Part shown: positions 15,304-63,860 of the stretch, piece after piece
Position numbering within the stretch: the first letter of the stretch is position 1
Layout of the letters: every line of letters begins with the position of its first letter
Assembly: GCA_012646185.1 (NCBI GenBank)
Contig: GCA_012646185.1_4706.1
Direction: 5' to 3' (one strand)
DNA from: a phage
DNA length: 64,000 nucleotides
Notes under the pieces: model-generated
What the model saw: the letters and a program-made list of their open reading frames with translations, nothing else
Told to the model about the DNA's origin: nothing
Database searches by the model: none
Program-made: the position numbers and the translations under genes

Positions 15304-17100
15304 TCAATCGATTATGTCGTGATCGTTAATTTCTACAATTTCTTCATCGAATCGACCGACGTCTTTCTTCAAGCCTGCATTGGTTGCTGCAACGTCATTT
15401 GCAATTTGTGGGGTAATGATTAACCGACCGCGCTCATCGATAGGTGCGTACATACTGAACTTCTGACGTCCGGTTGGTTCGGAGTGTGGAAGATTCAGAT
15501 AGCTTGCACAGAACGGGATGGAACCACTAACCAAACGACTCTCGTCAGCCAATGCAGCACCGCCTGCGTTTTGGCTCTGGAGAACAACATGCGTGCTCAC
15601 TTTGAACAGCATGCAATCACCAGGTGACTGAATCGATGTTGCCACTTTCTCACGTTTATCACGATTGCTCTGGATATTGAGAATCGCTTCCGTTGCAACT
15701 TGATTTCGCAACGCCTTCTGTACATCGCGATTGGTCATCTCTTTACGGTTGTTCTGTCGTTTACCACGTTCTGTGGTTTTAAGATGGAACCCCAGTTTAA
15801 AGATGCTCTTACGCACATCCTCCATGACATATTCCAACACCATCAATTCCTTACCGAACATCGTCGTGGTGTCAACACGACTCATTTCGATAGTGACATT
15901 GTCAATCAGATACGCCATAAATTCATAGAAGTCGTCGCAAGGAATATTTTCCTGTTTGAACTTCTTCTGCTGAATTTCGTCAACGTAAAGATCGAGACTG
16001 TCGATGTGGTGGTTTACATCACGCAACAAACGCGCATCCGCATTGTTGTTATTAAAGATAATCAAACCGAGTAATGTACGCCAATGGTCTGGCGCATTCG
16101 CGAACTCTTCAACCGGATAGTCTTCCGGAAAACGATCGTAATAACGGTCGATGAGATACAAGAATGCACCGACAAGGCCAAGAACAATACGTTCCGTGCC
16201 TCCACGTCTTACAGCAATTTGAATATCAGGATGTTTGTAACGTACAGCGCTAGCGCTACGGCTTTTACCGCTTTTGCTGATACTAAAGCCTTTAGGAATA
16301 ACCCCCATGGTGCGATAGATTACCCATTGGTCACGCGGAAAATCACGTTCAGCAAGGTTCCGTCCGGTTACGGCTTCGACACCTGCAAAACGTCGGAAAC
16401 ACTCACCCACCCCGTACTTCGCAAAGAGATAGTGACCCAGTGTGGTTACGCTGGTGTGGTTGATGTTGTCACCGTTCACTTTACTTTGTTTAGTAAGATG
16501 ATAGATTTGCGACCAGGGTAATGACAGGTAATGACGATAATCGATACCGGTCGGTGTATCGTTGCTCAGGAACTGATACGGTGTACGTTTAACCGTGATT
16601 TTGTCACGCGGAAGCATGATGAACGCCATGTCTTTCGTGTAACTGATTACGGGGTCAGCGAGTACCGCACTGAGAATGAAGTTCGCACCACGTAGACGCA
16701 TTTTACCACCCTGACCTACCGCGGGTAATAGGAGAGGATGTCGGATAATGCAGTAGTCCTTTCCGGGTTCACGACGGTCACCTGATTCCATCGCGCCGTA
16801 CCAGCGGAATTCTAGCATCACCATAAACACATCGGAAGGCGCAAGGTCGAAGGTCAGCTTACCGCTATCCTTCCCTTTGGTTTTCTTTCCTCCGCTTAAG
16901 TAGTGGAACTGTTCGCGGGCCATACAGCGACGCAGGCCATGATACACCAGATCCTTAGGTAAACTATCTTTGCTGTTCCGCCAAAGACGATCAACATAGG
17001 ACTCAACATCTTGCATCTTATCGACGACGATGTTGCGTGCTATCTTCTCGTTCATCTTCGGTGCAAGCTCAGCGACAGCTTTGCAGAATCTAGGATCCAT
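15304..17100 (-). CDS. hypothetical protein (~598 aa), start moved to ATG at 17098-17100
   Basis: Track start GTG at 17103; adjacent ATG has AAAGGAG ribosome-binding site 6 nt upstream. Confidence 0.8.
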   Translation of the reverse strand: MDPRFCKAVAELAPKMNEKIARNIVVDKMQDVESYVDRLWRNSKDSLPKDLVYHGLRRCMAREQFHYLSGGKKTKGKDSGKLTFDLAPSDVFMVMLEFRWYGAMESGDRREPGKDYCIIRHPLLLPAVGQGGKMRLRGANFILSAVLADPVISYTKDMAFIMLPRDKITVKRTPYQFLSNDTPTGIDYRHYLSLPWSQIYHLTKQSKVNGDNINHTSVTTLGHYLFAKYGVGECFRRFAGVEAVTGRNLAERDFPRDQWVIYRTMGVIPKGFSISKSGKSRSASAVRYKHPDIQIAVRRGGTERIVLGLVGAFLYLIDRYYDRFPEDYPVEEFANAPDHWRTLLGLIIFNNNNADARLLRDVNHHIDSLDLYVDEIQQKKFKQENIPCDDFYEFMAYLIDNVTIEMSRVDTTTMFGKELMVLEYVMEDVRKSIFKLGFHLKTTERGKRQNNRKEMTNRDVQKALRNQVATEAILNIQSNRDKREKVATSIQSPGDCMLFKVSTHVVLQSQNAGGAALADESRLVSGSIPFCASYLNLPHSEPTGRQKFSMYAPIDERGRLIITPQIANDVAATNAGLKKDVGRFDEEIVEINDHDIID

Positions 17101-17139
17101 CACACACTCCTTTCAGAAAGTTGCTTAAGCAGATTAAAG

Positions 17140-18814: not shown

Positions 18815-18913
18815 CTGACTTATGTATCACGGTGCCGGATGAATGTCCGGTGCAATGAAACCATCCGCAACGTTGTCGTCAAGAATATCGTCCAACGAAG
18901 CAGCTACGGTAGT

Positions 18914-21136
18914 TCAGTTAGTCTGAACCGGCAGCTTGATGTTTTCAGTGTAGACCTTACGCAGGTTCACAACGTTAATCAGACCCAGCAGCGGGCAGTT
19001 GTTAACGAAGCGGCAGCGCGGCTGAACCATGGTTTCTTTAGAAACCTGACCGTTACGGGTAACCTGAGCAACAGATACCAGTTCCGGTACATACAGGAAC
19101 ATACCGAAGGTCAGCGGATCCGGAGAACCCTGGATACCACGAGACAGGGTCACGAAGATCTTATCGCGCAGCATGACGTTCGGGTTATCTACAACCACGA
19201 AGTTGAAGCTTACACCAACGGTACGGAAATCGCCATCGGTCTGCAGGAACTGCGGGATGTAGTTGTCAGTTGCTACTACGCAACGCGGTTTCTCATCAGC
19301 GTTGGAAGACAGCAGCTGCAGAGCTGGCTGATAACCAGACTCGGAGTACATGCGGTATGCCATCTCACGAATCACGTTCATGATCGCAGCAGACACTTCA
19401 GCACGACGTTCTGCAGTGGTGGTACCCTGAACAGATTTCTCCAGGTCCAGATTGATTTCTTCGAACCACGGACGGATCAGGTAACGACCGAAACCTTCGA
19501 TCTGGATGTCGCCGAACTGACGGAAGCGAGAGGTCGCAACCGCTTTCAGTGCGTCTTTGTAGCTGAACAGTTTCTCAACCATCAGGTTGTCGAAACGTGC
19601 GTTAGCAGCTTGGATCAGAACGTCCAGGTCAGCAGCGTTTTCTTCCCAATCCAGCGGACGAGGAATGGAGAACGGAGCCAGCAGGCCGATTGCGTAACGT
19701 TCTTGCTTCATGTTGAAGTCAAGGTGCTTACCGCGCTCACGACGGTTGCTGTTGTTACGGCGGATACGCAGTTCGTAACCAACCAGTTTGAAGCTCAGGT
19801 CTTCAGCCAGCTGTTTGAACTCTTCGCCCTTACGCGGTTGTTCGATGTTGTCACGATCGACCAGACGATACAGTTCAGCGTTAGCGCCGTTAACACGCAG
19901 ACCGGCTTTCTCTACGTTGGAAGAACCGTAAACTTCGATTGCCAGCTGAGCAGCGGATTTCGAATCGATGATGTCCTGCAGCGCTTCAGCTCGTGCACCT
20001 TTAACGTCAACGGTGTTCTCATCAACGAAGATGGAGTGGGTGTCGAACGCCAGGGTCATTTTGCGGAAGTCGCCTTCCAGGGATTTCTGGAAACCGTTGG
20101 TGATCAGACCAGATACGTCGAACGGTACGTAAGAGGTTTTGCTGTGCTTGGTAGATTTGATTTCCACCAGGATTTTGGTCAGCGTGATCTGGGCGTCCAG
20201 CGCGTCGGTGTTGTCGCTGTAACCGTTAGCCAGGATGCTATCGTCTTCAGCGATACCGATCATGTCGATCAGTTTATCAACAGCCAGGTAAGACGTTTTA
20301 TAAGTTACGCCTTTAATTTCGATGTCGCGCGGAGCAACGATAGCTTTGTCAACGAAGTACTGTGCGTTAGCATCGTCAGCACGATAGATCGGATGCAGAT
20401 CGGTCACGTCGTTGGACAGAACGTCGTTGTACATGAACGCATCCAGCAGCGGACGACGTACCCAATCAGCCGGAGTACCGTCAGCGTTACGACGCAGGTG
20501 GTTGAACACCAGCGGACGACGGAAAGATACGTCGTAACCGATCTGGTTCGGAGCCAGAACGATGGTGTTGTACAGTTCGTTACCCATGCGGCTCAGACGA
20601 GAAGCCTTCACGTTGAACACAACGGAGTACGGCATCATGTCACGCAGTTCTTTCTGGTCGTAGGACAGCTGAACCAGTTCTTCAGATTCGCAACCGCAGG
20701 AATCAGCAGCCATCATGACGAAGTTAGAGCTGTCAACTTCACGGCCAGACGGAGTGGTGCTGATGTTCATGGAACGTGCTTGTTTAGCATATTCCACCGG
20801 GTTACCATGAGCCAGCATGATCAGTGCTGCTGCACGAGCCTGCTGTGCGTTCATGGTGAACAGCTGTTCTTCAATACGCTGCTTCTCTTCCGGAGTGGTG
20901 GTTTCGAAGCCCAGCATGGACAGAACCGGTTCTTCGGCTTTACGGATGTCGCTGCTGAAGCTCTTAACATCCATTTCGTTAACCAGTTTGTCCATGGATT
21001 TGAAATCAACCTTAGAAGCAGATTCCATAGACAGGAAGGTGTTCTCCAGACCTTTGTCTGCTGGTTTGCTACCATTAGCGGTCAGGAACTGGCGAGTGGC
21101 CGCGACCTGTTGGCTAAGAAGGGTTTTATCATTCAT
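18914..21136 (-). CDS. putative major capsid protein (740 aa)
   Basis: ATG at 21134-21136 with AAAGGA ribosome-binding site; length close to the ~750-aa capsid proteins of phiKZ-like phages (recollection, not verified); strong host-like codon bias; own terminator. Confidence 0.55.
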   Translation of the reverse strand: MNDKTLLSQQVAATRQFLTANGSKPADKGLENTFLSMESASKVDFKSMDKLVNEMDVKSFSSDIRKAEEPVLSMLGFETTTPEEKQRIEEQLFTMNAQQARAAALIMLAHGNPVEYAKQARSMNISTTPSGREVDSSNFVMMAADSCGCESEELVQLSYDQKELRDMMPYSVVFNVKASRLSRMGNELYNTIVLAPNQIGYDVSFRRPLVFNHLRRNADGTPADWVRRPLLDAFMYNDVLSNDVTDLHPIYRADDANAQYFVDKAIVAPRDIEIKGVTYKTSYLAVDKLIDMIGIAEDDSILANGYSDNTDALDAQITLTKILVEIKSTKHSKTSYVPFDVSGLITNGFQKSLEGDFRKMTLAFDTHSIFVDENTVDVKGARAEALQDIIDSKSAAQLAIEVYGSSNVEKAGLRVNGANAELYRLVDRDNIEQPRKGEEFKQLAEDLSFKLVGYELRIRRNNSNRRERGKHLDFNMKQERYAIGLLAPFSIPRPLDWEENAADLDVLIQAANARFDNLMVEKLFSYKDALKAVATSRFRQFGDIQIEGFGRYLIRPWFEEINLDLEKSVQGTTTAERRAEVSAAIMNVIREMAYRMYSESGYQPALQLLSSNADEKPRCVVATDNYIPQFLQTDGDFRTVGVSFNFVVVDNPNVMLRDKIFVTLSRGIQGSPDPLTFGMFLYVPELVSVAQVTRNGQVSKETMVQPRCRFVNNCPLLGLINVVNLRKVYTENIKLPVQTN

Positions 21137-21285
21137 TGAAAGTATCCTTTACAGAATTAACTTATATAAGTCGGTCGATAGACCATAGCGTACACGCGTG
21201 CATGCGCCACTATAGTATCAGTAAACACTTACCGTTATTGAGGTCGTGATACAACACTAAAAATGCCGCATAACTTTTCCCTACG

Positions 21286-21906
21286 TCACAAACGACGCAG
21301 GCGATAATGGATGGAACGATTGGTGCAATATGAACGGAACAGCGGCAATTGCGCAACTTCCGCAAGACTCATATTAATTCGCAGGTGTTCAATAACGGCG
21401 CTGTAGTTATCAGCAATACGATCGCTCAATAACTCTTCTGCCAATAAAGGAAGACAATCGACAACAATCGCGATCACATCCTCATTAACATAACGCACCC
21501 GAACACTCAGCGGACGTTTGTCTGGGCTGTAAGTTGGATCCGCCAAACGACGTTCAATATCACGCGGATAGCTCGTCAGTAAATGGTAATAACCATTGTC
21601 ATAACGATTGATGTACTCACACAGCACATCAACATTCTTCTCTGGCGGCAAACCTGTTTCGTCATAGTGATACGCAAACATACCACCAAGCAGGTTGTTA
21701 AGATGAACCGCAGGGTTCGCTTGTTCGTGTTCTTTCGTGATGAAGAAAGGCACGTTCTGGGCTGCGAAATAAAAACCTACATCATTGGGCGATAGTATGC
21801 CGAAAAGACTTTTAGGGTCTAATAACACCTGTAAGTCATCACGCGCATTTCGAATAATCGCGTGTTCTACCCAATTCGGAACGACGAGATATCGGAGTTC
21901 CTTCAT
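21286..21906 (-). CDS. hypothetical protein (206 aa)
   Basis: ATG at 21904-21906 with AAGAGG ribosome-binding site. Confidence 0.8.
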   Translation of the reverse strand: MKELRYLVVPNWVEHAIIRNARDDLQVLLDPKSLFGILSPNDVGFYFAAQNVPFFITKEHEQANPAVHLNNLLGGMFAYHYDETGLPPEKNVDVLCEYINRYDNGYYHLLTSYPRDIERRLADPTYSPDKRPLSVRVRYVNEDVIAIVVDCLPLLAEELLSDRIADNYSAVIEHLRINMSLAEVAQLPLFRSYCTNRSIHYRLRRL

Positions 21907-21945
21907 TATGATTACCTCTTTGCAAGTATCGAAAGGATTGAGTCG

Positions 21946-23556
21946 ATGGACCCAAAACAGATAGCCATTAAGATTATTACGTTACTGTTTCGTAATGCAC
22001 AATTGAACCATCCCGATCCCAGTACGATCGAACATGTTAAATCCGTCTTAGATAAAGTCGAACCCCCGAAAAACCATCTCGCTACAGACGTAGATAGAGA
22101 GGTTTTCAACAACCTGATGAATACCATTCATTGGATGTTGGAACAACCATTATCGGAACCTTTCGATAAACAACAGTTGTTACAAAGGATACGTTTGGAT
22201 TGCCTTGAACAAAGCAATCTTTACGAGATTCTTGCCGACGGACTGTACGATATCGAAGACGACGCTCATATCAGTAAGGTCTGTTCGCTCTATTACAATG
22301 AATTACGTAATCTGATTACCCGGCGTCGTGTTTTCGAAACCTTTAAAAACACGTACATGGATATCAGTAACGGGCGACTTGGGGATAAAGAATTTTTCGA
22401 TGCGATGGCGAATCTGAAATTATCGCTAGACAGTATCGAAATGGATACCGAAAATCCCGAAGAGATGTCGTGTATGATTGACGGCTTTATCGCTGACAGC
22501 GAAGACGATATCGAGAAAGTTGAACGTATGTTCGTCAAAGCGATGGAACGTAACAGTCCTGAAGGTGGATTTGTAACCGGCTGGCAAGGCTTTAATAAAA
22601 TGTTGGGGTCGGTCGGCGTTTTACGTCGCGGTACCTTAGGACTGATTGGTGCAATGCAGCACCGGAACAAGTCAGGCGTGTTGTTAAAACTGTTCACACA
22701 TCTGGCATTGTACAACAAACCCCATTTCTTTTTCCCAGAGCGAGCAAAGAAAGCATTACTGATTCATTTGTCGACAGAAAACGAAGTGGAAGAAAACACG
22801 CTTCAGATATACAAGAACATGCGAGAACAGGAAACGGGCGAATATGTCGATATTCGTAAGATTGACCCTCGCGAGGCATCACGTTATGTGTTGAAGGTGT
22901 TCAACGATGCGGGTTTCTCTGTTTGTATGCGTCGTGTTGATGGGATGAGTTATAAACAACTCGCTAATCTCATCGACCATTTCGAACGCATGGGTTATGA
23001 AGTCATGGCGTTGTTCATTGACTATCTGAAAATGTTCTCATCGGAAGGGTTGGATAGAAATGGACCGACCGGCGCATGGCTCCAAGAACTCTTCAACAAA
23101 GTCCGTAACCTCTGCAGCGTTAAACGTATTTTAGGTATGACGGTACACCAGCTGTCATCCGATGCGAAGATGCGTGCGCGTGATGGTAACGATGAAGAGT
23201 TTGTTGACCAGGTCGCAGGTTTAAGTTACTGGGATGGTTGTAAAGGGATCGACCGTGAGATTGACCTTGAGGTGATTGTTGATATCGTTAAGGAGCCGGG
23301 CAAACGTCAAAGTTGGCAGGTCTTTGCGTTAGGGAAAGACCGTCAACCGGATAACGGTTCAACGAAACCTGAAGACAAACATTTCGCGATGCCATTCCAA
23401 ACCATCGGGATGCTTCCTGATGATTACGGTAAGAAAGCAGTATACTGCCGCAAGGTTGGCGGACAACCTGTCTCCGAGGGAGGTAAAGGTCCGTGGAACA
23501 AGTTCGATGAAAACGCAGCACCGAGTAATGAATTACAATTTGATTTAGAATTTTAA
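21946..23556 (+). CDS. putative DnaB-like helicase (~536 aa) with atypical P-loop
   Basis: Start moved from GTG 21862 to ATG 21946 (AAAGGA, 8-nt spacer). GWQGFNKMLGSVGVLRRGTLGLIGAMQHRNKSG parallels the DnaB Walker A region; ALFIDYL resembles DnaB Walker B IDYLQL; QLSSD follows. Confidence 0.5.
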   Translation: MDPKQIAIKIITLLFRNAQLNHPDPSTIEHVKSVLDKVEPPKNHLATDVDREVFNNLMNTIHWMLEQPLSEPFDKQQLLQRIRLDCLEQSNLYEILADGLYDIEDDAHISKVCSLYYNELRNLITRRRVFETFKNTYMDISNGRLGDKEFFDAMANLKLSLDSIEMDTENPEEMSCMIDGFIADSEDDIEKVERMFVKAMERNSPEGGFVTGWQGFNKMLGSVGVLRRGTLGLIGAMQHRNKSGVLLKLFTHLALYNKPHFFFPERAKKALLIHLSTENEVEENTLQIYKNMREQETGEYVDIRKIDPREASRYVLKVFNDAGFSVCMRRVDGMSYKQLANLIDHFERMGYEVMALFIDYLKMFSSEGLDRNGPTGAWLQELFNKVRNLCSVKRILGMTVHQLSSDAKMRARDGNDEEFVDQVAGLSYWDGCKGIDREIDLEVIVDIVKEPGKRQSWQVFALGKDRQPDNGSTKPEDKHFAMPFQTIGMLPDDYGKKAVYCRKVGGQPVSEGGKGPWNKFDENAAPSNELQFDLEF

Positions 23557-55821: not shown

Positions 55822-56013
55822 AGGGCTAATGGATCGGCTGGCCGCACCAATCACAATGTGTCCGCTGCTATGCAACGGCATTCATAGAAATACCTTTTGA
55901 CGGTAACATCACCCATCACACCCCAAGCAATAAGAGTGGTCGGTTAAAAACAACAGAACGTGGGGATGATATAGAAAATCACCTTTTAACACTTATTACG
56001 AGTTTATCAAGCC

Positions 56014-57513
56014 ATGAGCGAACAAGAACGAAAACCTAAGAAGAAACTGCTCGGTATTCAATGTCGACACATCAGCTATAACGAAGCGAACGACGGCAGC
56101 AAGAACGACCTCATGATCGCAAAAGAGATCATGTTCTTTGATGACAATACGCAAGCGACGAACCTTCGCTTCTTTGAGAATTACAAACGTCCGTTTTGGG
56201 TGACGGTAGAGAGTAAACGTAAGAACAAATATAAAAAGGAAAGCGAGAAGCTCTCGCATGTGCGTCGCTATGATGTCCGCCAAAGTGAACTGGTTGAAAA
56301 GATCAGTTCGGTGCTTTATAAAAGACGTGCTGACGATAACACCCGTTTACAGCAGCTTGCACGGAGTCCATACCTCTACGGCACGGACGTTAGCGCCAGC
56401 TGTTATTTAAAAACCCAGTACAACACAAAATGGCCGGAATACGTCGATAAATTACCCGCTTCCATTGCCTGTTTCGATATCGAAACCGACGTTGTCCATG
56501 GACATGGTAAGATCGTTTGTATGTCTATTACAATGGGATACAATGCGATACTTTGCTATACCAAGGACTTCGTTGGTCATATTCCGAATGCGATTGAGAA
56601 AACCCATGAGAAGATTCGATATTACCTGGCCGAACGTCTGAATACCAAAGAAGATCCTCATGCGTTCGAAAAATATCAGTACGATGTGCGAATCGTAGAA
56701 AGTCCGGCACAAGCAGTCATCCAATGCATGCAGAAGGTTCACGAATGGCAGCCGGATTATCTCCTTGGCTGGAATATCGCGTTCGATATTCCGCGCATGC
56801 TCCAGGCACTGAACGAGGAAGGGTATCGTCCCGAGGATGTTTTCTCCGATCCTCGTGTACCCCCTAAGTATCGTATTGCTCGCTGGGTACCACCGAAGAC
56901 CGACAAGGTATCTGCTTCAGGCCGTAAAACCAACCTTACCCTCGAGCAGACCTGGCCGATGTTTTATACGATGGCTACGTATCAGGTTATGGATGCGATG
57001 TGTGGTTATAAGTTCGTTCGTTTAGGAAGACCGGATGAGGGACGCTATTCACTCGATGCGGTGTTAGAGCGTAATAAATGCCATACGAAATTAAAAGCGA
57101 TTCCTGGTACAGAAGGGTTCACGGAGCTCGCCTGGCACGAAGAGATGCAAACGAACCATCAAATCGACTACGGCGTATATAACCTTTGGGATAACCAAGG
57201 TATTGAGGCGTTGGACCAGAAAACAAAAGACTATTCGATGACCATCCCGATTCGTTTAGCGGCGTCGGATTTGAAAGATTTCAGTTCCAACCCTAAACGT
57301 ATCTGCGATAAACTTTTCTTCGTGTATCTTAACCGTGGGGAAGTCATGGGATGCACCGCCGACGACATGACCCAGGAAGAAGATAAGTGGGTTATCTCAC
57401 GAACCGGACATATCGTCACATTACCATGCGATCTCATGGCGGACAACGGCATTCATCTCTTCTGGGATATGCCTAATTTAAGGAGCTATATTCGATTATT
57501 TGTTGCGGATTAA
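56014..57513 (+). CDS. family-B DNA polymerase, N-terminal/3'-5' exonuclease part (5' exon plus read-through to in-intron stop)
   Basis: Exo I FDIETD, Exo II GWNIAFDIP, Exo III YNLWD in T4-like order and spacing; no polymerase motifs A/B/C; ORF ends at the start of the intron region. Confidence 0.75.
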   Translation: MSEQERKPKKKLLGIQCRHISYNEANDGSKNDLMIAKEIMFFDDNTQATNLRFFENYKRPFWVTVESKRKNKYKKESEKLSHVRRYDVRQSELVEKISSVLYKRRADDNTRLQQLARSPYLYGTDVSASCYLKTQYNTKWPEYVDKLPASIACFDIETDVVHGHGKIVCMSITMGYNAILCYTKDFVGHIPNAIEKTHEKIRYYLAERLNTKEDPHAFEKYQYDVRIVESPAQAVIQCMQKVHEWQPDYLLGWNIAFDIPRMLQALNEEGYRPEDVFSDPRVPPKYRIARWVPPKTDKVSASGRKTNLTLEQTWPMFYTMATYQVMDAMCGYKFVRLGRPDEGRYSLDAVLERNKCHTKLKAIPGTEGFTELAWHEEMQTNHQIDYGVYNLWDNQGIEALDQKTKDYSMTIPIRLAASDLKDFSSNPKRICDKLFFVYLNRGEVMGCTADDMTQEEDKWVISRTGHIVTLPCDLMADNGIHLFWDMPNLRSYIRLFVAD

Positions 57514-57606
57514 CCTTCGTTCTGTAAAAACTTACCGATATATAGAAATTACTGTGAGATACCAAAGGTACTCGTAAGTTTAGTAATTTCTGAGCGGTAG
57601 GTAAAT

Positions 57607-58743
57607 ATGTTGGAACATCTTGAACATTTAGACAATGAATACTTAAATTTCACCAATCGTCGTTATCGTATCTTCGAAGACGGTACACTTTACGATTACA
57701 AAGAGAATTGTAAAGTACCTGTTATAATAGAAGATAACAACTCTTACGTTATTATCGATTGGTATCGTGGGGTTGGTAAATACGAATTGGGGATGATCAT
57801 GCTTACAGCATTTGATCGCATCCACATTCCTAACTATCTTTACGATGAAATTGAATCGTTGTTTATTGATAACGACCCGACGAACTTTTCGTATAGTAAC
57901 CACATCTATCGTTTCCGTAATGGACCGCTGGCTGTGGAAGGGTATCCGGGATATTACTACATCCCGTTTGCCACGTACTATGCGCTAAATGAACAAGGTG
58001 AATGTTTAAGTCTTTTGTCTGGGGAAGGTATAACGTGGACAATGACGCAGCAAAACGGTACGCGGCGTCCCGGCTATCGATACAGAAAGGTAACACCTGA
58101 TAGCGGTTTTACGGCTCAGCTGTATCGTCATCGAGCGATGATGTTGACGTTTCGTCGTTACGACGCAAGCGTTGTGGAAATGACCGTTAATCACAAGAAC
58201 GGTATTAAAGGCGATGATTGGCTGGATAACCTGGAATGGGCAACCTACAAGGAAAACAACAATCATGCGCGTATAAACGGTTTATGTGACGGCAAAGCGA
58301 AACCTATCAAGATCTTTGATTATAATCGTCATACCGAACGTCATTTCAAGAGCATCGCTGAGGCGGAACGTGCGTATCCACACGTAGCAAAAGGACGTTT
58401 CAAATGGTGGGTTGAAAATCCACCGAAACGTATACCTGAATGTAACCTCTACATCAAACATGCGTTCGATAATACTCCGTGGCCTGAATGGAAACTGGGT
58501 GATGAACGACGTATTGAAGATGTAGCGGGTATTCCGATTATCGCCCTTAACATGGTTACAGGCGAGAAACGAGTGTATTCATCGGTTACAGCTGCGGGTA
58601 AGGATACGAAAACAAGTTGGATAACAGTACGACGTCACTGTGATAAGCGTGTCGTTCCTGTTAAACAAGCATGGTGTTTCCGTTATGCTGACGACGTCAA
58701 AAACATGCCTGAGTTAACTTCCCTACCAACAATCGAACAGTAA
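57607..58743 (+). CDS. HNH homing endonuclease (378 aa)
   Basis: ATG start; motif VNHKNGIKGDDWLDNLEWATYKENNNHA (His-Asn-His); located inside the intron. Confidence 0.8.
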   Translation: MLEHLEHLDNEYLNFTNRRYRIFEDGTLYDYKENCKVPVIIEDNNSYVIIDWYRGVGKYELGMIMLTAFDRIHIPNYLYDEIESLFIDNDPTNFSYSNHIYRFRNGPLAVEGYPGYYYIPFATYYALNEQGECLSLLSGEGITWTMTQQNGTRRPGYRYRKVTPDSGFTAQLYRHRAMMLTFRRYDASVVEMTVNHKNGIKGDDWLDNLEWATYKENNNHARINGLCDGKAKPIKIFDYNRHTERHFKSIAEAERAYPHVAKGRFKWWVENPPKRIPECNLYIKHAFDNTPWPEWKLGDERRIEDVAGIPIIALNMVTGEKRVYSSVTAAGKDTKTSWITVRRHCDKRVVPVKQAWCFRYADDVKNMPELTSLPTIEQ

Positions 58744-59254
58744 CGATAACAGGTCCCCCTACTTGTAATGAGTGGGTGAACTCTCTTTAATTGCTGGAAA
58801 CCTTTAATGCCCCTCCACACCACAACGCAATCCGAAAGGGTAAACGTGATGGTTGTCGAAAGACAGAAAAAAGTTGGAGGGGATTACCTAAGCTGAAATA
58901 AAAGCCGTTACTTTCTGGATATGGAAAGAGTCTAACGGTGCTAAGGGTCCTGCTAGAAATAAGGTAACCGTAGCAGCGAAGACCCTACGGACTGTCGTGA
59001 CCGACTCGATGAGTTGGCGTGGTTAACACGGACAGGCTACGGGTAACGTTCAACGACCATCCGGTTGCGCGGAGTAGGAGAATTAGGATGTTCTCCGAAA
59101 AGGGAGAAGTCGGTCGAGGTGTTGTAGAAACACCGTTGCTTTGCTTCGCAAACATAAGACAGGCTAAGATATGGTCTATATTAAATGTAATACTATGATG
59201 TATAGAATTTAATGGCTCGATATTAGCAGTTCATATCCAAATGGGCAGATCCTG
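58744..59254 (+). ncRNA. group I intron catalytic core (3' portion)
   Basis: Region aligns by eye to T4 td intron: CTTGTAAT...GGGTGAACTCTCT...AATTGCTGG then R and S elements; no protein-coding capacity. Confidence 0.55.
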
Positions 59255-59470
59255 TTGAATCTATCCAGAGCATGTGTTTTTCGTGAGCTCTCACGCATTG
59301 AGGGCGTCTCTGACTACCAATTCAGGAAGCTAGGTATCAACTTTATTACCGGAGGTAAAACGAACGCTGTAGACTTCTGTAGAATCGTTTATAAAGCACC
59401 ATCGATGTTTGAGCTCTTAGAACATTTCGATGCGACGCGTCCAAAAGAGGAAGCGCGGACCATCGAATGA
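59255..59470 (+). CDS. possible 3' exon of the polymerase-exonuclease gene (frame open from 59213), or small independent ORF
   Basis: ORF follows directly after the intron core; track start is TTG; terminator hairpin downstream. Confidence 0.3.
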   Translation: MNLSRACVFRELSRIEGVSDYQFRKLGINFITGGKTNAVDFCRIVYKAPSMFELLEHFDATRPKEEARTIE

Positions 59471-59519
59471 TTCAAGTAGGTTGATCCTCGTTTAACAAAA
59501 AAGAAAACACATGCGAAGC

Positions 59520-59549
59520 TCCTCCCCCTGGCGGAAGCCGGAGGGAGGG
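59520..59549. terminator. hairpin with GGAA loop, terminator between convergent genes
   Basis: CTCCTCCCCCTGGC-GGAA-GCCGGAGGGAGGG with one mismatch; U-rich on the minus side. Confidence 0.6.
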
Positions 59550-59556
59550 GTGAGGT

Positions 59557-60042
59557 TTATGCGCGTTCGTTACCAACCGTTACTTTGTAGTCAGCGTCGG
59601 TTAAGAATATAGACAGGAATCCATGTTCTTTGCAAATCTGACTAAGGATGTCAGCAATGATTTCGTTGATCATCGGCTTGTTTGCAAGGGCATAGATGTA
59701 CCCGGGTGTAAAAGAAAGTGCGTGATTGATCATAGGCTCATGAGAAGCCAAGATAAGGATCACGTGATGCTTCCCATCGTCGGTAACGACCGCTTGCGTA
59801 GACACGAAGAAATCAGTGAAGCAGCAGCGATCACAGGCTTTAGGTATATACAAGTCACCCAGAGCTTCGTTACGTGCTTTTACGTGTGTTTCAGGGGTGA
59901 TGCTGCTAAGTTGATCTTCAGCGAGATCCAAGACATCCTCAATCGTTTTAAGAATAGCGTTGCGGAAATCCTCACGGTAGAATGGGATGATATCACGATC
60001 GTTCATGTAATCGCCGGATTCGATAGTAAAGTTGATGTTCAT
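59557..60042 (-). CDS. hypothetical protein (161 aa)
   Basis: ATG at 60040-60042. Confidence 0.8.
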   Translation of the reverse strand: MNINFTIESGDYMNDRDIIPFYREDFRNAILKTIEDVLDLAEDQLSSITPETHVKARNEALGDLYIPKACDRCCFTDFFVSTQAVVTDDGKHHVILILASHEPMINHALSFTPGYIYALANKPMINEIIADILSQICKEHGFLSIFLTDADYKVTVGNERA

Positions 60043-60152
60043 TGAATGCTCCTAGTGGTTATGTCGATTGATTGATGTATTGATTTATGTTTGATGGGGT
60101 ATACTTGAAACTACAAATAAGGCTCTTGGCGTTGCTGTTATGGTTCAGTTCT

Positions 60153-60605
60153 TTATCCCTTGTTGGATTCGTCAATATACTTGGTGTCGTAAGACAAATG
60201 CTGAATTAATTTTCTAGGTCTGATGAATATACGACATGTGATAAACACATCAGGATTGTATTGTTCCACGCAACGTCCGAAGGCTCGTTTTGCGGCGTGA
60301 CGCATCAACACTAATTCCCGATCGTTCATCTCATCATCAAATTCGATGTGTATCGTGATTTTATCGGGAAATAAATAGATAGAGTAATCGCCACCAATAC
60401 CGCCGTCGTCAAAACGATAATCGTTGTGGTAATGGTGAAGTTTACCTTCGTGTATCGTCTGGTACCACCCGACGTTACTATCAAGGCCCATACCCAGGCG
60501 TCCGAATGCCTGATTAATAATATCTTCGACGACGGATGCGGGTGTGGGGCCATTGAACAATCTATCCAGACGTTTTTTCATCGATTTGTCGTTTTTCATG
60601 TTCAT
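60153..60605 (-). CDS. hypothetical protein (150 aa)
   Basis: ATG at 60603-60605 with CAGGAAAAG ribosome-binding site. Confidence 0.8.
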   Translation of the reverse strand: MNMKNDKSMKKRLDRLFNGPTPASVVEDIINQAFGRLGMGLDSNVGWYQTIHEGKLHHYHNDYRFDDGGIGGDYSIYLFPDKITIHIEFDDEMNDRELVLMRHAAKRAFGRCVEQYNPDVFITCRIFIRPRKLIQHLSYDTKYIDESNKG

Positions 60606-60633
60606 TGTTTCTTTTCCTGTGTAGTCGGTATAC

Positions 60634-60669
60634 AGCCCTTCCCCGGCCTTGGTGGCTAGGGAAGGGGCT
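60634..60669 (-). terminator. hairpin AGCCCTTCCCC...GGGAAGGGGCT
   Basis: Between the stop of the 60681 gene and the start of the 60153 gene; one bulge. Confidence 0.5.
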
Positions 60670-60680
60670 ATGCTACGTTG

Positions 60681-61079
60681 TTATGCTTCGCAATCAGCTG
60701 AAGGCGTCGCGCCTTTCTTACCGGCGATACGCCAAATCCGACACGCTGGGTAATGGTTAACCTCTAGAGAGCAAGGAATGTTATATTTCTCTTCCAGCGC
60801 ATAAAGACATTTCGTTAGCTGCTCCAGCGCGTTCTCGTCGTGTCGTAACGCGTGGTGGCCTAATCGATGTTGGTCGTTCTTTATATACGCCTCGAAGAGA
60901 ACATGTTGGCGATGTACGCTGACGTTTACAGCCTCGAGTATAGCTTGGTCGAGCATACGACTAAAGCACATCAACGAGTCAGATACGTTTTCTCGCTTAA
61001 CCAGATCGATCATGGCGGGAATATACGAATGGTCGATGTTATCGATGACCGCTTTAGCGACGGAATCAGCAACGTTCAT
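60681..61079 (-). CDS. hypothetical protein, small paralog pair C (132 aa)
   Basis: ATG at 61077-61079; shares KAVxDNIDH, MIDxxKxE, EEKYNIPxSLEVN with the 61115 gene. Confidence 0.8.
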   Translation of the reverse strand: MNVADSVAKAVIDNIDHSYIPAMIDLVKRENVSDSLMCFSRMLDQAILEAVNVSVHRQHVLFEAYIKNDQHRLGHHALRHDENALEQLTKCLYALEEKYNIPCSLEVNHYPACRIWRIAGKKGATPSADCEA

Positions 61080-61114
61080 CTTTTAATCCCTAGTTTGTTA
61101 TTGATCACGTATAT

Positions 61115-61510
61115 TTACTCTTTGACGTCAGTTGTCGTTTCGACATGCTTCTCACTACTGACGTACCAGAGCAGGTACGCTGGGAAAAGATTGACCTCTA
61201 AGCTAAATGGGATATTGTATTTCTCTTCCATTTTACAGAGATGTTCTTTAAGTAAATTTCTCGCGTCTCTGTCACCACGAACAGAGTGCCAGTCTAGTTC
61301 TTTGTTCTCCTTTACCAGGACCTCTACGATGATACGTTGCTCGTGAACCTCGGTTTTCACAGTGAAAAGTAAATCGCTGCTATCAAAACGGGTAAAACGA
61401 ATGTATGAACCAGGTGTTTTTTCTTGTTTAATAATATCGATCATGGTAGAAATGCGCGGATGATCGATGTTGTCGTTAACAGCTTTAACGATGGATTCTA
61501 CAATGCTCAT
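61115..61510 (-). CDS. hypothetical protein, small paralog pair C (131 aa)
   Basis: ATG at 61508-61510 with AAGGA ribosome-binding site. Confidence 0.8.
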   Translation of the reverse strand: MSIVESIVKAVNDNIDHPRISTMIDIIKQEKTPGSYIRFTRFDSSDLLFTVKTEVHEQRIIVEVLVKENKELDWHSVRGDRDARNLLKEHLCKMEEKYNIPFSLEVNLFPAYLLWYVSSEKHVETTTDVKE

Positions 61511-61605
61511 TTTTTATCCTTAATGTTATCGATATTGACGAGTTCATCAATACGGCACTGTTGGTTGAATTCGATTAATCGTTGAACTTTATCTTTGATA
61601 GACAT
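61507..61605 (-). CDS. possible 32-aa ORF (MSIKDKVQRLIEFNQQCRIDELVNIDNIKDKK), translationally coupled
   Basis: ATG 2 nt after the upstream stop; its TGA overlaps the ATG of the 61115 gene; GAAGGAG upstream. Below the ORF-track size cut-off. Confidence 0.3.
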   Translation of the reverse strand: MSIKDKVQRLIEFNQQCRIDELVNIDNIKDKK

Positions 61606-61607
61606 GA

Positions 61608-62066
61608 TTACCCATTAGCTCCTTCTTCGTCTGGAGAGTACTCCATTGTGTAGAATTCATAACCATCGGAAAACTTGAGTGTTAATGTAATAGGGAAATC
61701 GCACGGCGTAGCTGATTTCGTAAATGCGTTATTAGCAACATCTGCCAACCGACGTATAGCATCAGTCCCGCTGACGCTGAATGGTAGTTGTATGTTGATA
61801 AGGATACGATGCTTGTAAACATAGAAAACAACGGTACTGTCAAGATAGACGCTATGGAACGGTATTGTTGGGATGCGTTCCACGATGGTAAAATACGTCC
61901 CGTCATTATCGCTATGTCCCACCGACCAAATATCGGATTTGCGTAGATTTTGTTTGAGAGATTCGATGCTTCGAGTGACGGTATCAGCAACAGGCGTGAC
62001 GTAAGCGTCTTTATGCGAGTCGAAAAGTTCGTTGACGTTAGATTCGAATGAAAACGTTGTTGCCAT
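61608..62066 (-). CDS. hypothetical protein, small paralog pair D (152 aa)
   Basis: ATG at 62064-62066; C-terminal region resembles the 62132 gene (PITLTLKFSDGYEFY vs PVILTINGHDGSGLFEF). Confidence 0.8.
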   Translation of the reverse strand: MATTFSFESNVNELFDSHKDAYVTPVADTVTRSIESLKQNLRKSDIWSVGHSDNDGTYFTIVERIPTIPFHSVYLDSTVVFYVYKHRILINIQLPFSVSGTDAIRRLADVANNAFTKSATPCDFPITLTLKFSDGYEFYTMEYSPDEEGANG

Positions 62067-62091
62067 TTTCTACCTCAATGGTTTAACCGAT

Positions 62092-62118
62092 ACGTGCCCC
62101 ACCTAACAAGGGACACGT
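62092..62118 (-). terminator. hairpin ACGTGCCCC-acctaacaa-GGGACACGT
   Basis: One mismatch; sits between two minus-strand genes. Confidence 0.35.
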
Positions 62119-62131
62119 TATCGTTGATTAA

Positions 62132-62626
62132 TTACTCTTCTGTGTTTTCATTGTCGGGATCGTAGTGGAATTCGAACAGCCCTGAACCGTCGTGCCCGTT
62201 GATTGTTAGTATAACGGGCATATCGAATCCTCGGACACGCGAATGAAAACACTGTGCTAATTTGAGTTTGGCGTATGCCGCTATTTCATTGACAGCAATA
62301 CACGATTCACCTGTTATACTCAGTATAACGTCGATACTAACAATGTTGTCGTGCAACGCAAAACGCCAGCGATCGATACGATTATTATCTTTATCGGTTG
62401 TCTCGTTTACGAGATAGACTTTATCGTCAACCGACAAAGCGGGACTCCAGCAACGATCGTTTATTAAATTCGCCTGGAGTTTTAGTATCGTCTGATCGAT
62501 AATATCCCAACACGTAACCAGCGTGGTGTCAGGCACTGAGTAGAGAAGGGCGTGCACTTTATCCTTTATTTTAAGTGCTTCCGCAGGACGTCCGCAAATA
62601 CCATGCATTTCAACTTTCTTATTCAT
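62132..62626 (-). CDS. hypothetical protein, small paralog pair D (~164 aa), start moved to ATG at 62624-62626
   Basis: Track start GTG at 62632; ATG two codons later follows a purine-rich AGAAAGAAG. Confidence 0.75.
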   Translation of the reverse strand: MNKKVEMHGICGRPAEALKIKDKVHALLYSVPDTTLVTCWDIIDQTILKLQANLINDRCWSPALSVDDKVYLVNETTDKDNNRIDRWRFALHDNIVSIDVILSITGESCIAVNEIAAYAKLKLAQCFHSRVRGFDMPVILTINGHDGSGLFEFHYDPDNENTEE

Positions 62627-62669
62627 ATTCACTTCTTTCTTAATCTAAATGTTAGTTGGGGTGGAATGC

Positions 62670-63272
62670 TTACATGCTTTCTAACATATCGATGATCATG
62701 GAACCCATACCGAAACTCGGTCTTTCACCGATGTACTCAGCAAGCTGGCGATGGACGTCTTTTGGATTTCCTTCTTCACCATCGGCATCGATGTAGACCG
62801 AAAAAGAAAATGAATCGGAATCCACGCTGATAACCAGACGACGTTCATTGCGTTCCTTGAGCGTGTCGACGATAGCTGCTTTCAGTACTGCGATCGCGTT
62901 CATCGCGTGCAAGATATCTCCATCGGGTTTCGGCAGATCGATCTTTTCTTTCAGGTCGATATTGATGTTGGTTACAATTGGGTTGAGGTCGACCTTGACG
63001 TAATCGTTAGGGTACATGCGAATAATCGCACGATCGATATCTGAACCGTAAAAGTCAACACGTGGCTTTAACACTTCTTTGTTTGGATCCATGTTTTCAT
63101 CCATACCCGCCTGCAAGAAACGTTCTACGTTATCCAGTTCACGATAAACTGACGCTTCGATTTCTTTCAGATAGTTGGCTGCGGTTTCATGTTCTTTACG
63201 CAGCTCGTCTTTAAGGAGCTGTACGGTGACTTCACTGGAACGAATGCTGTTCGCGAATTGGGTAATTGACAT
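62670..63272 (-). CDS. hypothetical protein (~200 aa), start moved to ATG at 63270-63272
   Basis: Track start TTG at 63302; ATG at 63272 has AAGGAA ribosome-binding site 6 nt upstream. Confidence 0.75.
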   Translation of the reverse strand: MSITQFANSIRSSEVTVQLLKDELRKEHETAANYLKEIEASVYRELDNVERFLQAGMDENMDPNKEVLKPRVDFYGSDIDRAIIRMYPNDYVKVDLNPIVTNINIDLKEKIDLPKPDGDILHAMNAIAVLKAAIVDTLKERNERRLVISVDSDSFSFSVYIDADGEEGNPKDVHRQLAEYIGERPSFGMGSMIIDMLESM

Positions 63273-63327
63273 ATCGAATTCCTTAAATTCTCTTGAGTTC
63301 AATTAATGATGAAAAGCTGTAAAAAAA

Positions 63328-63345
63328 GGTGGGGCGAACCCCACC
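63328..63345 (-). terminator. intrinsic terminator GGTGGGG-CGAA-CCCCACC with U7 tract on minus strand
   Basis: A7 on plus strand immediately 5' of the hairpin; downstream of the 63371 gene. Confidence 0.8.
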
Positions 63346-63370
63346 AAAACGTCAGACACACGCAGGAAAA

Positions 63371-63796
63371 TTAATTCAGTGACGCATATAACGCATAACG
63401 ACTGTAGATCTCAACCGCCGGTCCGTTATGCGTTAACAGACCATCCCGGTTGTAATACTGGAAAAATGAATAACGTTTGTCGAAGTGATAAACAAAAGCA
63501 ATGTCTTTGCTGCCAAGACCTGTGATGCGTGGTCTGTTTTTATCTAACAGCGCTTTGACTTTTAACAGTGTTGCCGCACGTGCTTTAACGTTAGGGATTA
63601 ATCCATCACAATCGATATAAACTGTGTAACCTGTTTCAGATGTTGCGACGGTCGTATTGCGATTGACGCGGAAGATTTTTGTTTCGTATGTACTATCTTC
63701 AAGAATTGGGTTTTGTTTTTCGTATTTTCGTTTACGCAGAAATTCTACAACGGTGATATAGTTAGCGGTAATATGCCCGGTTATAGCTTGTAACAT
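63371..63796 (-). CDS. hypothetical protein (141 aa)
   Basis: ATG at 63794-63796 with AAAGGA ribosome-binding site; conserved upstream element. Confidence 0.8.
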   Translation of the reverse strand: MLQAITGHITANYITVVEFLRKRKYEKQNPILEDSTYETKIFRVNRNTTVATSETGYTVYIDCDGLIPNVKARAATLLKVKALLDKNRPRITGLGSKDIAFVYHFDKRYSFFQYYNRDGLLTHNGPAVEIYSRYALYASLN

Positions 63797-63860
63797 CTTG
63801 ACATCCTTTTATATTGGATTGGTTGCAATTGTCTTAAATAGATGATAAGATATTTTGCTC

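Follow-up and report, generated by a model that had tools for sequence, protein, structure and literature searches.

Evidence for a group I intron encoding an HNH homing endonuclease in a DNA polymerase subunit gene of Goslar-like jumbo phages

Results

Organization of the locus

In this work we analyzed a 64,000-nucleotide (nt) stretch of phage DNA (contig GCA_012646185.1_4706.1 of GenBank assembly GCA_012646185.1, referred to at its full length as the window), in which a gene of the DNA polymerase family appears to be interrupted by a group I intron that carries an HNH homing endonuclease gene (HEG). Over positions 55900-59700 the window shows 95% nucleotide identity, across the alignable parts, to Escherichia phage vB_EcoM_Goslar, a 237-kb nucleus-forming jumbo phage of the genus Goslarvirus whose record names E. 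coli as the host. A 499-codon open reading frame (ORF), which holds the family B DNA polymerase (PolB) exonuclease motifs FDIETD, GWNIAFDIP and YNLWD that an earlier note on this DNA had read in 56014-57513, is followed by an ORF for an HNH endonuclease, also recognized in that note, by a non-coding segment and by a short open frame (Table 1). The non-coding segment, put at ~510 nt in the earlier note, measures 472 nt up to the 3' splice site and ~510 nt up to the next start codon, and it holds a group I core. The layout in Goslar is the same: gp068 'DNA polymerase' of 499 amino acids (aa), gp069 'NUMOD1 domain protein', ~820 unannotated bases and then a gene on the opposite strand. The GenBank and RefSeq records of Goslar show neither an intron nor any feature under the match to exon 2, and literature searches for a DNA polymerase intron of Goslar or of chimalliviruses found no description of one. 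While introns with a HEG in a polymerase gene are a well-known type of element, the present copy is new and was previously unannotated. The best explanation overall, and one that we hold with high confidence, is that 57511-59215 is a group I intron, encodes an HNH homing endonuclease and lies inside a gene of the DNA polymerase family.

Table 1. Features of the interrupted polymerase gene and of its putative intron (positions in the window).
Feature	Positions	Strand	Details and evidence
Exon 1, 499 codons, PolB N-terminal/3'-5' exonuclease subunit, ending ...IRLFVAD	56014-57510	+	ORF, invariant Exo residues, Foldseek, intron-less alleles
P1 5' strand, exon GGAU with U57510 in U•G wobble	57507-57510	+	Pairs with GUCC 58753-58756 (RNAalifold)
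Putative group I intron, 1705 nt, starting UAA and ending G59215 (omega-G)	57511-59215	+	Intron-less alleles L010/L011/L017, RF00028, structure counts
P1a 5' strand UCGUU, closing the endonuclease-ORF loop	57517-57521	+	Pairs with AACGA 58742-58746 (RNAalifold)
Variable endonuclease cassette (leader and ORF) in extended P1 loop	57530-58742	+	Identity profile against Goslar
HNH homing endonuclease ORF, 378 aa (HNH_3 residues 192-218, NUMOD1 309-344)	57607-58743	+	Pfam, PHROG
Internal guide AGGUCC	58751-58756	+	GUCC pairs with exon 1 GGAU (P1); AG may pair with exon 2 CU (2-bp P10)
P2 hairpin CCUACUU/GAGUGGG	58758-58776	+	Pairs invariant in six type A sequences, hence no covariation
P3, UCUCUU 58782-58787/GGGAGA 59102-59107, enclosing P4-P7.2	58782-59107	+	Covariance-model alignment, pair counts
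P4	58792-58797/58968-58975	+	Inside P3
P5	58800-58804/58961-58965, long extension ~58810-58939	+	Inside P3
P6 and extensions	58976-59049	+	Inside P3
P7 5' strand GACCAU	59055-59060	+	Pairs with AUGGUC 59171-59176
P7.1/P7.2	59061-59096	+	Inside P3
P8 with two internal hairpins	59109-59164	+	Pair counts
P7 3' strand AUGGUC, within AAGAUAUGGUCUA	59171-59176	+	Covariance-model alignment, pair counts
P9 hairpin AUUAAAU/AUUUAAU	59180-59213	+	Compensatory U-A to C-G in L016
Exon 2, 84 codons and stop, starting LDISSSYPNG (PolB motif A)	59216-59470	+	Translation, homologs, invariant residues, profile alignment
GC-rich hairpin where the polymerase gene and the minus-strand gene 59557-60042 converge	59518-59551		RNA fold z-score -2.1

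Exon boundaries and the spliced gene

The splice sites fall at 57510|57511 and 59215|59216, between the codons of D499 and L500 and two codons ahead of the motif A aspartate. When metagenome contigs were searched with a codon-degenerate pattern for the end of exon 1, three Goslar-like ones (L010, 240 kb; L011; L017, 249 kb) proved to have alleles that lack the intron and fuse exon 1 to exon 2 exactly at 57510|59216 (...GTT GCA GAC|CTC GAY ATH AGC...). The predicted spliced product is 100% identical over 100% of its length to a 583-aa database protein (P0001), and its residues 8-576 align with positions 5-570 of the 576 in the PHROG 3011 'DNA polymerase' profile (E=4e-178); as this family is matched from end to end, the short exon 2 is its normal C-terminus. 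The earlier note had reasoned that a polymerase ending at 57513 in related phages would speak against an intron. This is not what was found, as a single unbroken match spans 80% or more of the spliced product in 288 of 299 jumbo phage records, and the uninterrupted orthologues (SL2 gp270, RSL2 ORF179, 201phi2-1 gp144) read ...h-h-A-D-L-D-(I/V)-x-S-(S/T)-Y-P-N at the junction. The short 3' exon foreseen in that note is likewise real as an open frame, 59213-59470, with the translation WLDISSSYPNGQ..., but the true exon starts at 59216.

Exon 1 and the HNH ORF share a reading frame and are separated by the stops TAA 57511 and TAG 57598; the frame of exon 2 is not that of exon 1, the intron length of 1705 nt being 3n+1. 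The change of frame between the exons together with the two stops excludes both read-through and an intein. No start codon is present in exon 2 ahead of motif A, and the first in-frame start (TTG 59255) follows the motif. Removal of the intron restores an intact conserved frame, the one seen in the intron-less alleles, in P0001 and in PHROG 3011, and the real product of a gp068-type gene is predicted to be the protein of 583 aa made after splicing, not the annotated one of 499 aa. The spliced junction would read ...UUUGUUGCGGAU|CUCGAUAU..., in a product ~1.7 kb shorter than from genomic DNA, and the tryptic peptide LFVADLDISSSYPNGQILLNLSR would span the junction of the 583-aa protein. A junction placed by eye from a generic motif A, RLFV|LDISS (57504|59216), was rejected because uninterrupted homologs keep the conserved A-D-L-D. 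Phage vB_PQ1 was rejected as a further intron case; its gene lies in five coding sequences and resembles frameshifts or assembly errors.

Covariance model and secondary structure of the ribozyme

With the Rfam group I intron model RF00028 the window copy gives no match at the gathering score of 50 bits. A permissive scan matches 58705-59196 over the full model (positions 1-253) with 42.5 bits, far above what chance would give (E=6.8e-9 when scanned locally, E=1.8e-7 when all 64 kb are searched), and this is the sole RNA-family match in the window; the hit that the earlier note had expected from this model therefore exists, but below the gathering cut-off. Alleles at the same site score 44.7 (Goslar), 47.0 (L009) and 70.4 bits (L008), the last above gathering, as is the 59.2-bit match in the orthologous gene of Pseudomonas phage HPP-Temi. 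By the presence of P7.1/P7.2 in the predicted fold the intron is of type IA. The pairing GACCAT/ATGGTC of the R and S elements, proposed in the earlier note, is recovered as P7.

Six ribozymes of the type that we call A (window, L013, L015, L016, Goslar, L009) were aligned as ORF-deleted constructs. RNAalifold on its own recovered P1, the helix that closes the ORF loop, P2, P4, P5 and P6; the full architecture, with the P3/P7 pseudoknot, P7.1/P7.2, and the P5, P6 and P8 extensions, was written by hand. In this hand-drawn P1-P9 model of 129 pairs 95.3% of the cells are paired, compared to 41-49% when the partners are slid, and compensatory double changes occur at 10 pairs (18 cells), compared to 0-2 in the slid controls; the covariation score was reached by none of 500 shuffles. 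The compensatory changes lie in P5e (four pairs) and P6a (two), and also in P6c, P6d and P7.2, with ACCC/GGGU to CCUC/GAGG, GGAGA/UCUCC to GGGGA/UCCCC, CCGUUA/UAACGG to CCACCG/CGGUGG and, in P9, U-A to C-G as examples. In L013 and L016 one A-U pair of P7 is replaced by G•U, and the sequence of P9 differs in the Goslar-type alleles.

At the 5' splice site U57510 faces G58753 within GGAU/GUCC, the U•G pair expected of a group I intron. The last base of exon 1 is U in all eight intron-containing alleles that could be read (window, Goslar, L008, L009, L013-L016) and C in all three intron-less ones, exon 1 ending in GGAT in every intron-containing and in AGAC in every intron-less allele. A terminal G is present at the 3' end of all seven complete introns (..AAUGG or ..AGUGG in variant A1, ..AAGAG in A2, ..CAAUGG in type B). 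The guide AGGUCC can base-pair with the ligated junction GGAU|CU, one of the pairs being G•U; it is kept in types A and B and reads AGUCC in HPP-Temi. A guide ahead of the ORF, within the 19 conserved nt that follow the 5' splice site (e.g., GUUC 57519-57522), was set aside in favor of AGGUCC, which is conserved and was chosen by RNAalifold. A helix brackets the ORF in three unrelated sequences, as UCGUU/AACGA in type A, AAAUCGG/CCGAUUU in type B and ACGUAAA/UUUACGU in HPP-Temi, from which it follows that the endonuclease ORF sits in the ~1.2-kb loop of an extended P1.

The HNH endonuclease

Both domains of the endonuclease score above their Pfam cut-offs, HNH_3 with 25.7 bits (cut-off 24.8; sequence VNHKNGIKGDDWLDNLEWATYKENNNHA) and the helix-turn-helix NUMOD1 with 32.9 bits (cut-off 22.8), and the protein matches PHROG 59 'HNH endonuclease' with E=3.9e-17. 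Its sole match in the Protein Data Bank (PDB) is a weak one to I-HmuI (1U3E; E=0.053, 15.3 bits, residues 123-227). All seven complete introns carry an intact ORF, and the ratio of nonsynonymous (dN) to synonymous (dS) divergence is 0.01-0.05 within a variant class; an intact ORF under such constraint would be expected to encode a functional protein. Identity to Goslar is 100% ahead of the cassette, drops to ~60-70% exactly across 57530-58742, and is 100% again at 58743. The exact endonuclease protein of the window was found on 25 contigs.

The host protein is a subunit of a split family B polymerase

In an alignment of 86 family sequences the Exo I, II and III residues (D155/E157, N254/D258, Y389/D393) are invariant, and so are D499, D501, Y506 and P507. 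The host protein scores 16.4 bits with Pfam DNA_pol_B_exo1 (cut-off 23), and a direct sequence search of the PDB with the spliced protein gave no PolB match, so that profile and fold searches were needed. An AlphaFold2 model (predicted local distance difference test score, pLDDT, 88.3; predicted template modelling score, pTM, 0.83) had RB69 gp43 as its top Foldseek match (E=5e-13, probability 1.0, 450-475 columns), followed by T4 gp43, Pol epsilon and E. coli Pol II; the alignment covers roughly the N-terminal half of the ~900-residue gp43 enzymes. The family profile matches RB69 gp43 with E=2.5e-6, collinear through Exo I-III. Its segment 'rahvaDlDvsstYPnaeavlniskett', weak when taken alone (1.6 bits), falls on RB69 404-431 with D501 opposite the catalytic D411 and Y506-P507 opposite Y416-P417, and motif A (DxxSLYPS) is present as D501-I-S-S-S-Y506-P507. 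Motifs B and C, the fingers and the thumb are not found, the protein and all of its orthologues stopping 84 residues past the junction. PhiKZ-like phages are reported to have a very divergent PolB with the exonuclease and polymerase modules on separate polypeptides (PMC3201878; PMC7824862). By its conserved residues and modelled fold the host gene is the N-terminal/exonuclease subunit, with motif A, of such a split PolB, and not a complete T4-type polymerase; the earlier assignment as T4-type was right as to the gp43-like family B relationship and wrong as to completeness. The host protein is ~39% identical to the phiKZ-type protein, the family is present in ~300 jumbo phage records, and a note in the record of 201phi2-1 gp144 lists phiKZ gp82 and EL gp51 as relatives.

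No partner with the polymerase domain was found within the window. The ORF at 15304-17103, a PHROG 'polymerase', was rejected as this partner, being a homolog of phiKZ gp123, a subunit of the non-virion RNA polymerase (PDB 7OGP, E=6e-41); the plus-strand ORF at 18839-21139 was rejected because it has no family matches and the composition of a shadow ORF of the 740-aa minus-strand ORF. A regular-expression search for motifs B and C in all open frames of at least 300 aa in the window gave no match, this being a weak test for so divergent an enzyme. It should be noted that motif A is invariant in the exonuclease subunit although the literature gives the separate polymerase subunit catalytic aspartates of its own. 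Residues 497-515 have a pLDDT below 50 in the isolated chain; judging from the model they might dock into the partner subunit.

Allelic variants at the insertion site

Eleven alleles of the locus, with exons 95-98% identical, were recovered from Goslar-like phages. The intron-less class comprises L010, L011 and L017. The type A ribozyme occurs with two HEG variants, A1 in the window, L013, L015 and L016 (introns of 1705-1706 nt) and A2 in Goslar and L009 (1762 nt). A type B ribozyme is present in L008 (1536 nt) and in L014, the contig of which ends inside the intron. Endonuclease proteins are 67% identical between A1 and A2 and ~40% between A and B; the HEGs of the window and Goslar share 67% and their exons 97% identity. 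The ribozyme of the window (58743-59215) is a mosaic, P6-P8 being identical to Goslar (A2) and the HEG cassette and P9 matching L013 and L016 (A1), which differ from the window in P6-P7.2 at many compensated positions. The genealogies of exons and introns are decoupled: Goslar and L009 have an exon dS of 0.21 and a HEG dS of 0.10, and exons are most alike between the window and L008 (dS 0.10), yet the introns of these two are entirely different. Among the cluster members listed, the interrupted 499-aa form is found on ~213 contigs and the uninterrupted 583-aa form on ~101 (roughly 2:1).

The exons are under purifying selection (dN 0.000-0.006 vs. dS 0.10-0.28), while nucleotide diversity (pi), 0.040 in the upstream background, rises to 0.139 over the final 30 nt of exon 1 and to 0.229 over the 30 nt that open exon 2. 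The 40-aa peptide around the junction is identical in 10 of 10 alleles, and the peak of diversity is purely synonymous. Exon 1 ends in ...AGC TAT ATT MGA TTA TTT GTT GCG GAT in all intron-containing alleles and in ...AGT TAT ATC CGT CTA TTC GTT GCA GAC in all intron-less ones, the latter with seven synonymous changes in the last nine codons. The serine codons that open exon 2 follow the type of endonuclease: AGC AGT TCA with A1, TCT TCA AGY with A2 and AGC TCA TCT with B. These patterns of variants and diversity are those expected of homing with co-conversion, of target-site divergence and of intron exchange, a mechanism that we infer from the alleles.

Proteins of Goslar-like phages were also seen on contigs of ~236-259 kb in many NCBI isolate assemblies of E. 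coli and Salmonella enterica, the exact exon 1 protein of the window being present on 139 contigs. Such phages are frequent companions of the isolates, perhaps through a carrier state, pseudolysogeny or contamination, and Salmonella may also be a host.

A second insertion site and related ribozymes

Other chimalliviruses have a second insertion site in this gene. In the HPP-Temi orthologue (PP968062; L004, 569-4234) the group I intron carries an HNH ORF of 444 aa and is inserted 6 nt downstream of the site in the window, after A-D-L-D and directly past the codon of the motif A aspartate. Its guide GUCC pairs with an exon GGAU that comes from TTG GAT; the GGAU of the Goslar-like phages comes from GCG GAT. 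At least 19 of the best 120 distant homologs, which share 33-41% identity, stop at ...AD or ...ADLD, P0042, P0055, P0076, P0096, P0116 and P0120 being among those behind the ADLD site, and in one distant case the truncated ORF is directly followed by an ORF of 444 aa. Four distant homologs (P0094, P0104, P0113 and P0118) break off at DW(I/M)|VTLPS, ~45 residues before motif A (GHIVTLP at ~57400-57415 in the window); these breaks could mark a third intron site or be just contig ends.

The 32-nt P7/P7.1 core of the window recurs at 93.8% identity in 46 phiKZ-type phages, in an unannotated, ORF-less gap of ~320 nt between the coding sequences 'RNA polymerase beta subunit' and 'RNA polymerase' (in Pseudomonas phage SL2, NC_042081, L023, at 2868-3191); local alignment of the ribozyme with this gap scores 54. 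From these sequence matches, the ribozyme lineage of the window probably interrupts an RNA polymerase gene in phiKZ-type phages. A group I-like ribozyme that has 31 nt of this core in common with the window was also noticed, as part of a helicase-gene intron, on the minus strand at ~8190-9250 of an unrelated AT-rich phage (L020, IMGVR_UViG_3300045988_153096), downstream of a LAGLIDADG-type ORF which itself follows a DnaB-like helicase ORF ending ...SSAIADVI; a permissive Rfam scan of the L020 region found nothing, although P3-, P4- and P7-like elements are visible by eye.

Other features of the window

A DnaB-like replicative helicase is encoded at 21862-23556 on the plus strand (PHROG 3213, E=6e-123), and the phiKZ gp123 homolog mentioned above on the minus strand. 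The ORFs 18839-21139 (plus strand, 766 aa) and 18914-21136 (minus strand, 740 aa) overlap almost fully; the first had no match in PHROGs and NCBIfam, the second none in NCBIfam, the one database used for it. Downstream of the polymerase gene, the minus strand of 59557-63800 holds about eight ORFs of 130-210 aa, which are hypothetical proteins in Goslar and of which several look paralogous (e.g., 60681-61079 and 61115-61510, with ...NIDH...MID..K...NIP.SLEVN...). The hairpin between the two converging genes is likely, from its position and fold, to act as a bidirectional terminator. Scans of the window for sigma-70 promoters and for terminators gave nothing over the expectation from shuffles; phages of this kind use their own RNA polymerases.

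Discussion

Several points weigh against the interpretation of 57511-59215 as a group I intron and should be stated together. The Rfam score of the window copy is below the gathering cut-off, P1 has only 4 bp and P10 at most 2 bp, and the covariation comes from only six related sequences, with the structure drawn from one of them; moreover P1, P1a, P2 and most of P3, P4 and P7 are invariant within type A and give no covariation signal. The loop of P1 is an unusual place for the ORF compared to the classic phage introns, in which it lies in P6 (td, nrdB) or in P8 (SPO1). By sequence the link to I-HmuI is weak, nicking being an analogy and not a result. Splicing is predicted here from sequence comparison, and no paper addressing this intron was found.

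The alternative that survives best accepts a genuine group I intron but has it depend in vivo on a protein cofactor, either the HNH protein acting as a maturase or a chaperone of the host or the phage, a question that matters because transcription takes place inside the phage nucleus and proteins are made outside it. Many group I introns do need chaperones or maturases in vivo, and a P1 of only 4 bp with a very large loop (~1.2 kb) and long peripheral extensions may fold slowly. Nothing in the sequence points to a maturase, however; HNH intron proteins, unlike some LAGLIDADG proteins, are not known to act as maturases, and those group I introns of phages that have been examined are known to self-splice in vitro. 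We consider such a dependence improbable, though worth keeping in mind. Far less credit can be given to the absence of any splicing, with a free-standing HNH gene lying between two genes or splitting one, and an exonuclease that works as a protein of 499 aa with or without a separately translated peptide. Free-standing HNH genes are common in phages, Goslar gp068 is annotated as a stand-alone 'DNA polymerase' with nothing annotated downstream, and the low confidence of residues 497-515 in the model might make the C-terminal part seem dispensable; but a group I core that has significant covariance-model scores and compensatory changes occupies the 472 nt past the ORF, exon 2 has no start ahead of motif A and yet D501, Y506 and P507 are invariant in 86 homologs, and the junction peptide is identical in all ten alleles although synonymous changes around it are heavy, with the intron-less alleles fused at the very boundaries of the ribozyme. 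Equally slim is the chance of a decayed, non-splicing remnant in what would here be a pseudogene of the polymerase subunit. The sub-threshold Rfam score and the short P1 and P10 would suit decay, but the same interrupted allele is found in the isolated phage Goslar and on >200 contigs, exons and endonuclease are intact and constrained (dN and dN/dS as given above), the changes in the ribozyme helices are compensatory and not random, and the gene family is retained in ~300 jumbo phage records. An intein or other in-frame protein insertion, suggested by the HNH ORF being in frame with exon 1 and by the occurrence of homing endonuclease domains in inteins, is excluded by the two stops, the frame shift of exon 2, the 472-nt non-coding ribozyme and the lack of intein splicing motifs.

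For the group I intron, which we prefer, the following course of events can be proposed. Exon GGAU would pair with the guide GUCC at 58753-58756, just past the endonuclease ORF, with UCGUU/AACGA closing the ~1.2-kb ORF loop. A guanosine cofactor would attack after U57510 and the freed exon 1 would then attack after omega-G59215; ligation of ...GCG GAU to CUC GAU... would give the 583-aa protein with an intact A-D-L-D-I-S-S-S-Y-P motif A. On an unspliced transcript translation would halt at the UAA formed by the first three bases of the intron. The 378-aa HNH/NUMOD1 protein would be a site-specific DNase, most likely a nicking one by analogy to I-HmuI. In a cell infected by two phages, alleles that lack the intron or are foreign would be cut by it close to the insertion site, and repair from the intron-containing genome would copy the intron together with flanking exon bases, i.e., homing with co-conversion.

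A bolder reading, modelled on the case of PhiPA3 gp210 and offered tentatively as we think it rather doubtful, is that the locus is an active battleground of rival intron endonucleases in co-circulating nucleus-forming phages, where they would serve as weapons, in interference competition or marker exclusion, more than being selfish passengers. The variant-specific synonymous recoding of the first codons of exon 2 could then represent a self-immune version of the target, and the seven synonymous changes at the end of exon 1 in intron-less alleles could reflect resistance to cutting. If this were true the target would be a replication gene, in a system tractable in E. coli.

Goslar is a model phage for the biology of the phage nucleus, and genetic, antisense knock-down, structural and proteomic work on its polymerase subunit needs the 583-aa gene model, as exon 2 with its invariant motif A is wholly unannotated there. 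Self-splicing introns of chimalliviruses are of current interest because an intron endonuclease has been shown to act as a weapon between co-infecting PhiPA3 and PhiKZ. The present site offers a natural allelic series at one position, made up of alleles that lack the intron, of a ribozyme that occurs with two HEG variants and of another ribozyme, and this series suits competition tests in E. coli. It also illustrates that genuine group I introns can score under the Rfam gathering cut-off and escape annotation; such introns are probably widely under-annotated in the polymerase genes of jumbo phages, since the window intron falls below that cut-off and at least 19 of the best 120 distant homologs are truncated at the same motif.

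Comparison with known systems

The introns of Bacillus phages SPO1 and SP82 (I-HmuI, I-HmuII) and of Bastille (I-BasI) are, like that of the window, group I introns with an HNH ORF at a conserved motif of a phage DNA polymerase gene. The host gene of the SPO1 type is a family A polymerase, whereas here it is a family B exonuclease/N-terminal subunit, and the SPO1 ORF lies in P8 in place of the extended P1 loop. I-HmuI has 174 aa and the endonuclease of the window 378 aa, with marginal similarity between them, and the host of the present intron is a Gram-negative nucleus-forming jumbo phage. In that group, as here, the exon sequence beside the insertion site varies between phages. Close relatives share similar ribozymes with highly divergent ORFs, the observation in the title of Goodrich-Blair and Shub (1994), reference 37 of PMC11620839, and the same relation is seen between the window and Goslar.

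Like the td intron of T4 (I-TevI, group IA2), the window has an in-frame UAA directly after the 5' splice-site U and has P7.1/P7.2, the element common to both being CGACyAUCC...GGAGUAGG. The close resemblance to the td core claimed in the earlier note was not borne out beyond this generic P7/P7.1: local alignment of the two ribozymes scores 21 against 18.7±2.2 for shuffles, which is not significant, and blastn gave no match to T-even phages. The td ORF lies downstream of the P3-P5 core (L024, 1432-2169), in P6, and encodes a GIY-YIG enzyme; that of the window, for an HNH enzyme, is placed in the P1 loop. The long P5 extension (~130 nt) of the window is also unlike td. Within the family of phiKZ gp82, 201phi2-1 gp144 and EL gp51 (Kazlauskas and Venclovas, 2011; PMC3201878) the spliced protein of the window is a full-length member, the genes for those three being uninterrupted.

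PhiPA3 gp210 is the HNH endonuclease of a group I intron in the gene for a virion RNA polymerase beta subunit, and both its cutting and the competitive advantage that it confers in co-infections of PhiPA3 and PhiKZ were demonstrated experimentally (Birkholz et al., 2024, Science; PMC11620839). As in the window, a chimallivirus carries a group I intron with an HNH endonuclease by the codons of the catalytic aspartates of a core polymerase gene, and has an intron-less relative. The two differ in the gene, which is for an RNA polymerase in PhiPA3 and for a DNA polymerase subunit here, and in the hosts, Pseudomonas as against E. coli/Salmonella. Unlike the PhiPA3 case, the site described here, analyzed by sequence, is one at which several intron and HEG variants coexist with intron-less alleles.

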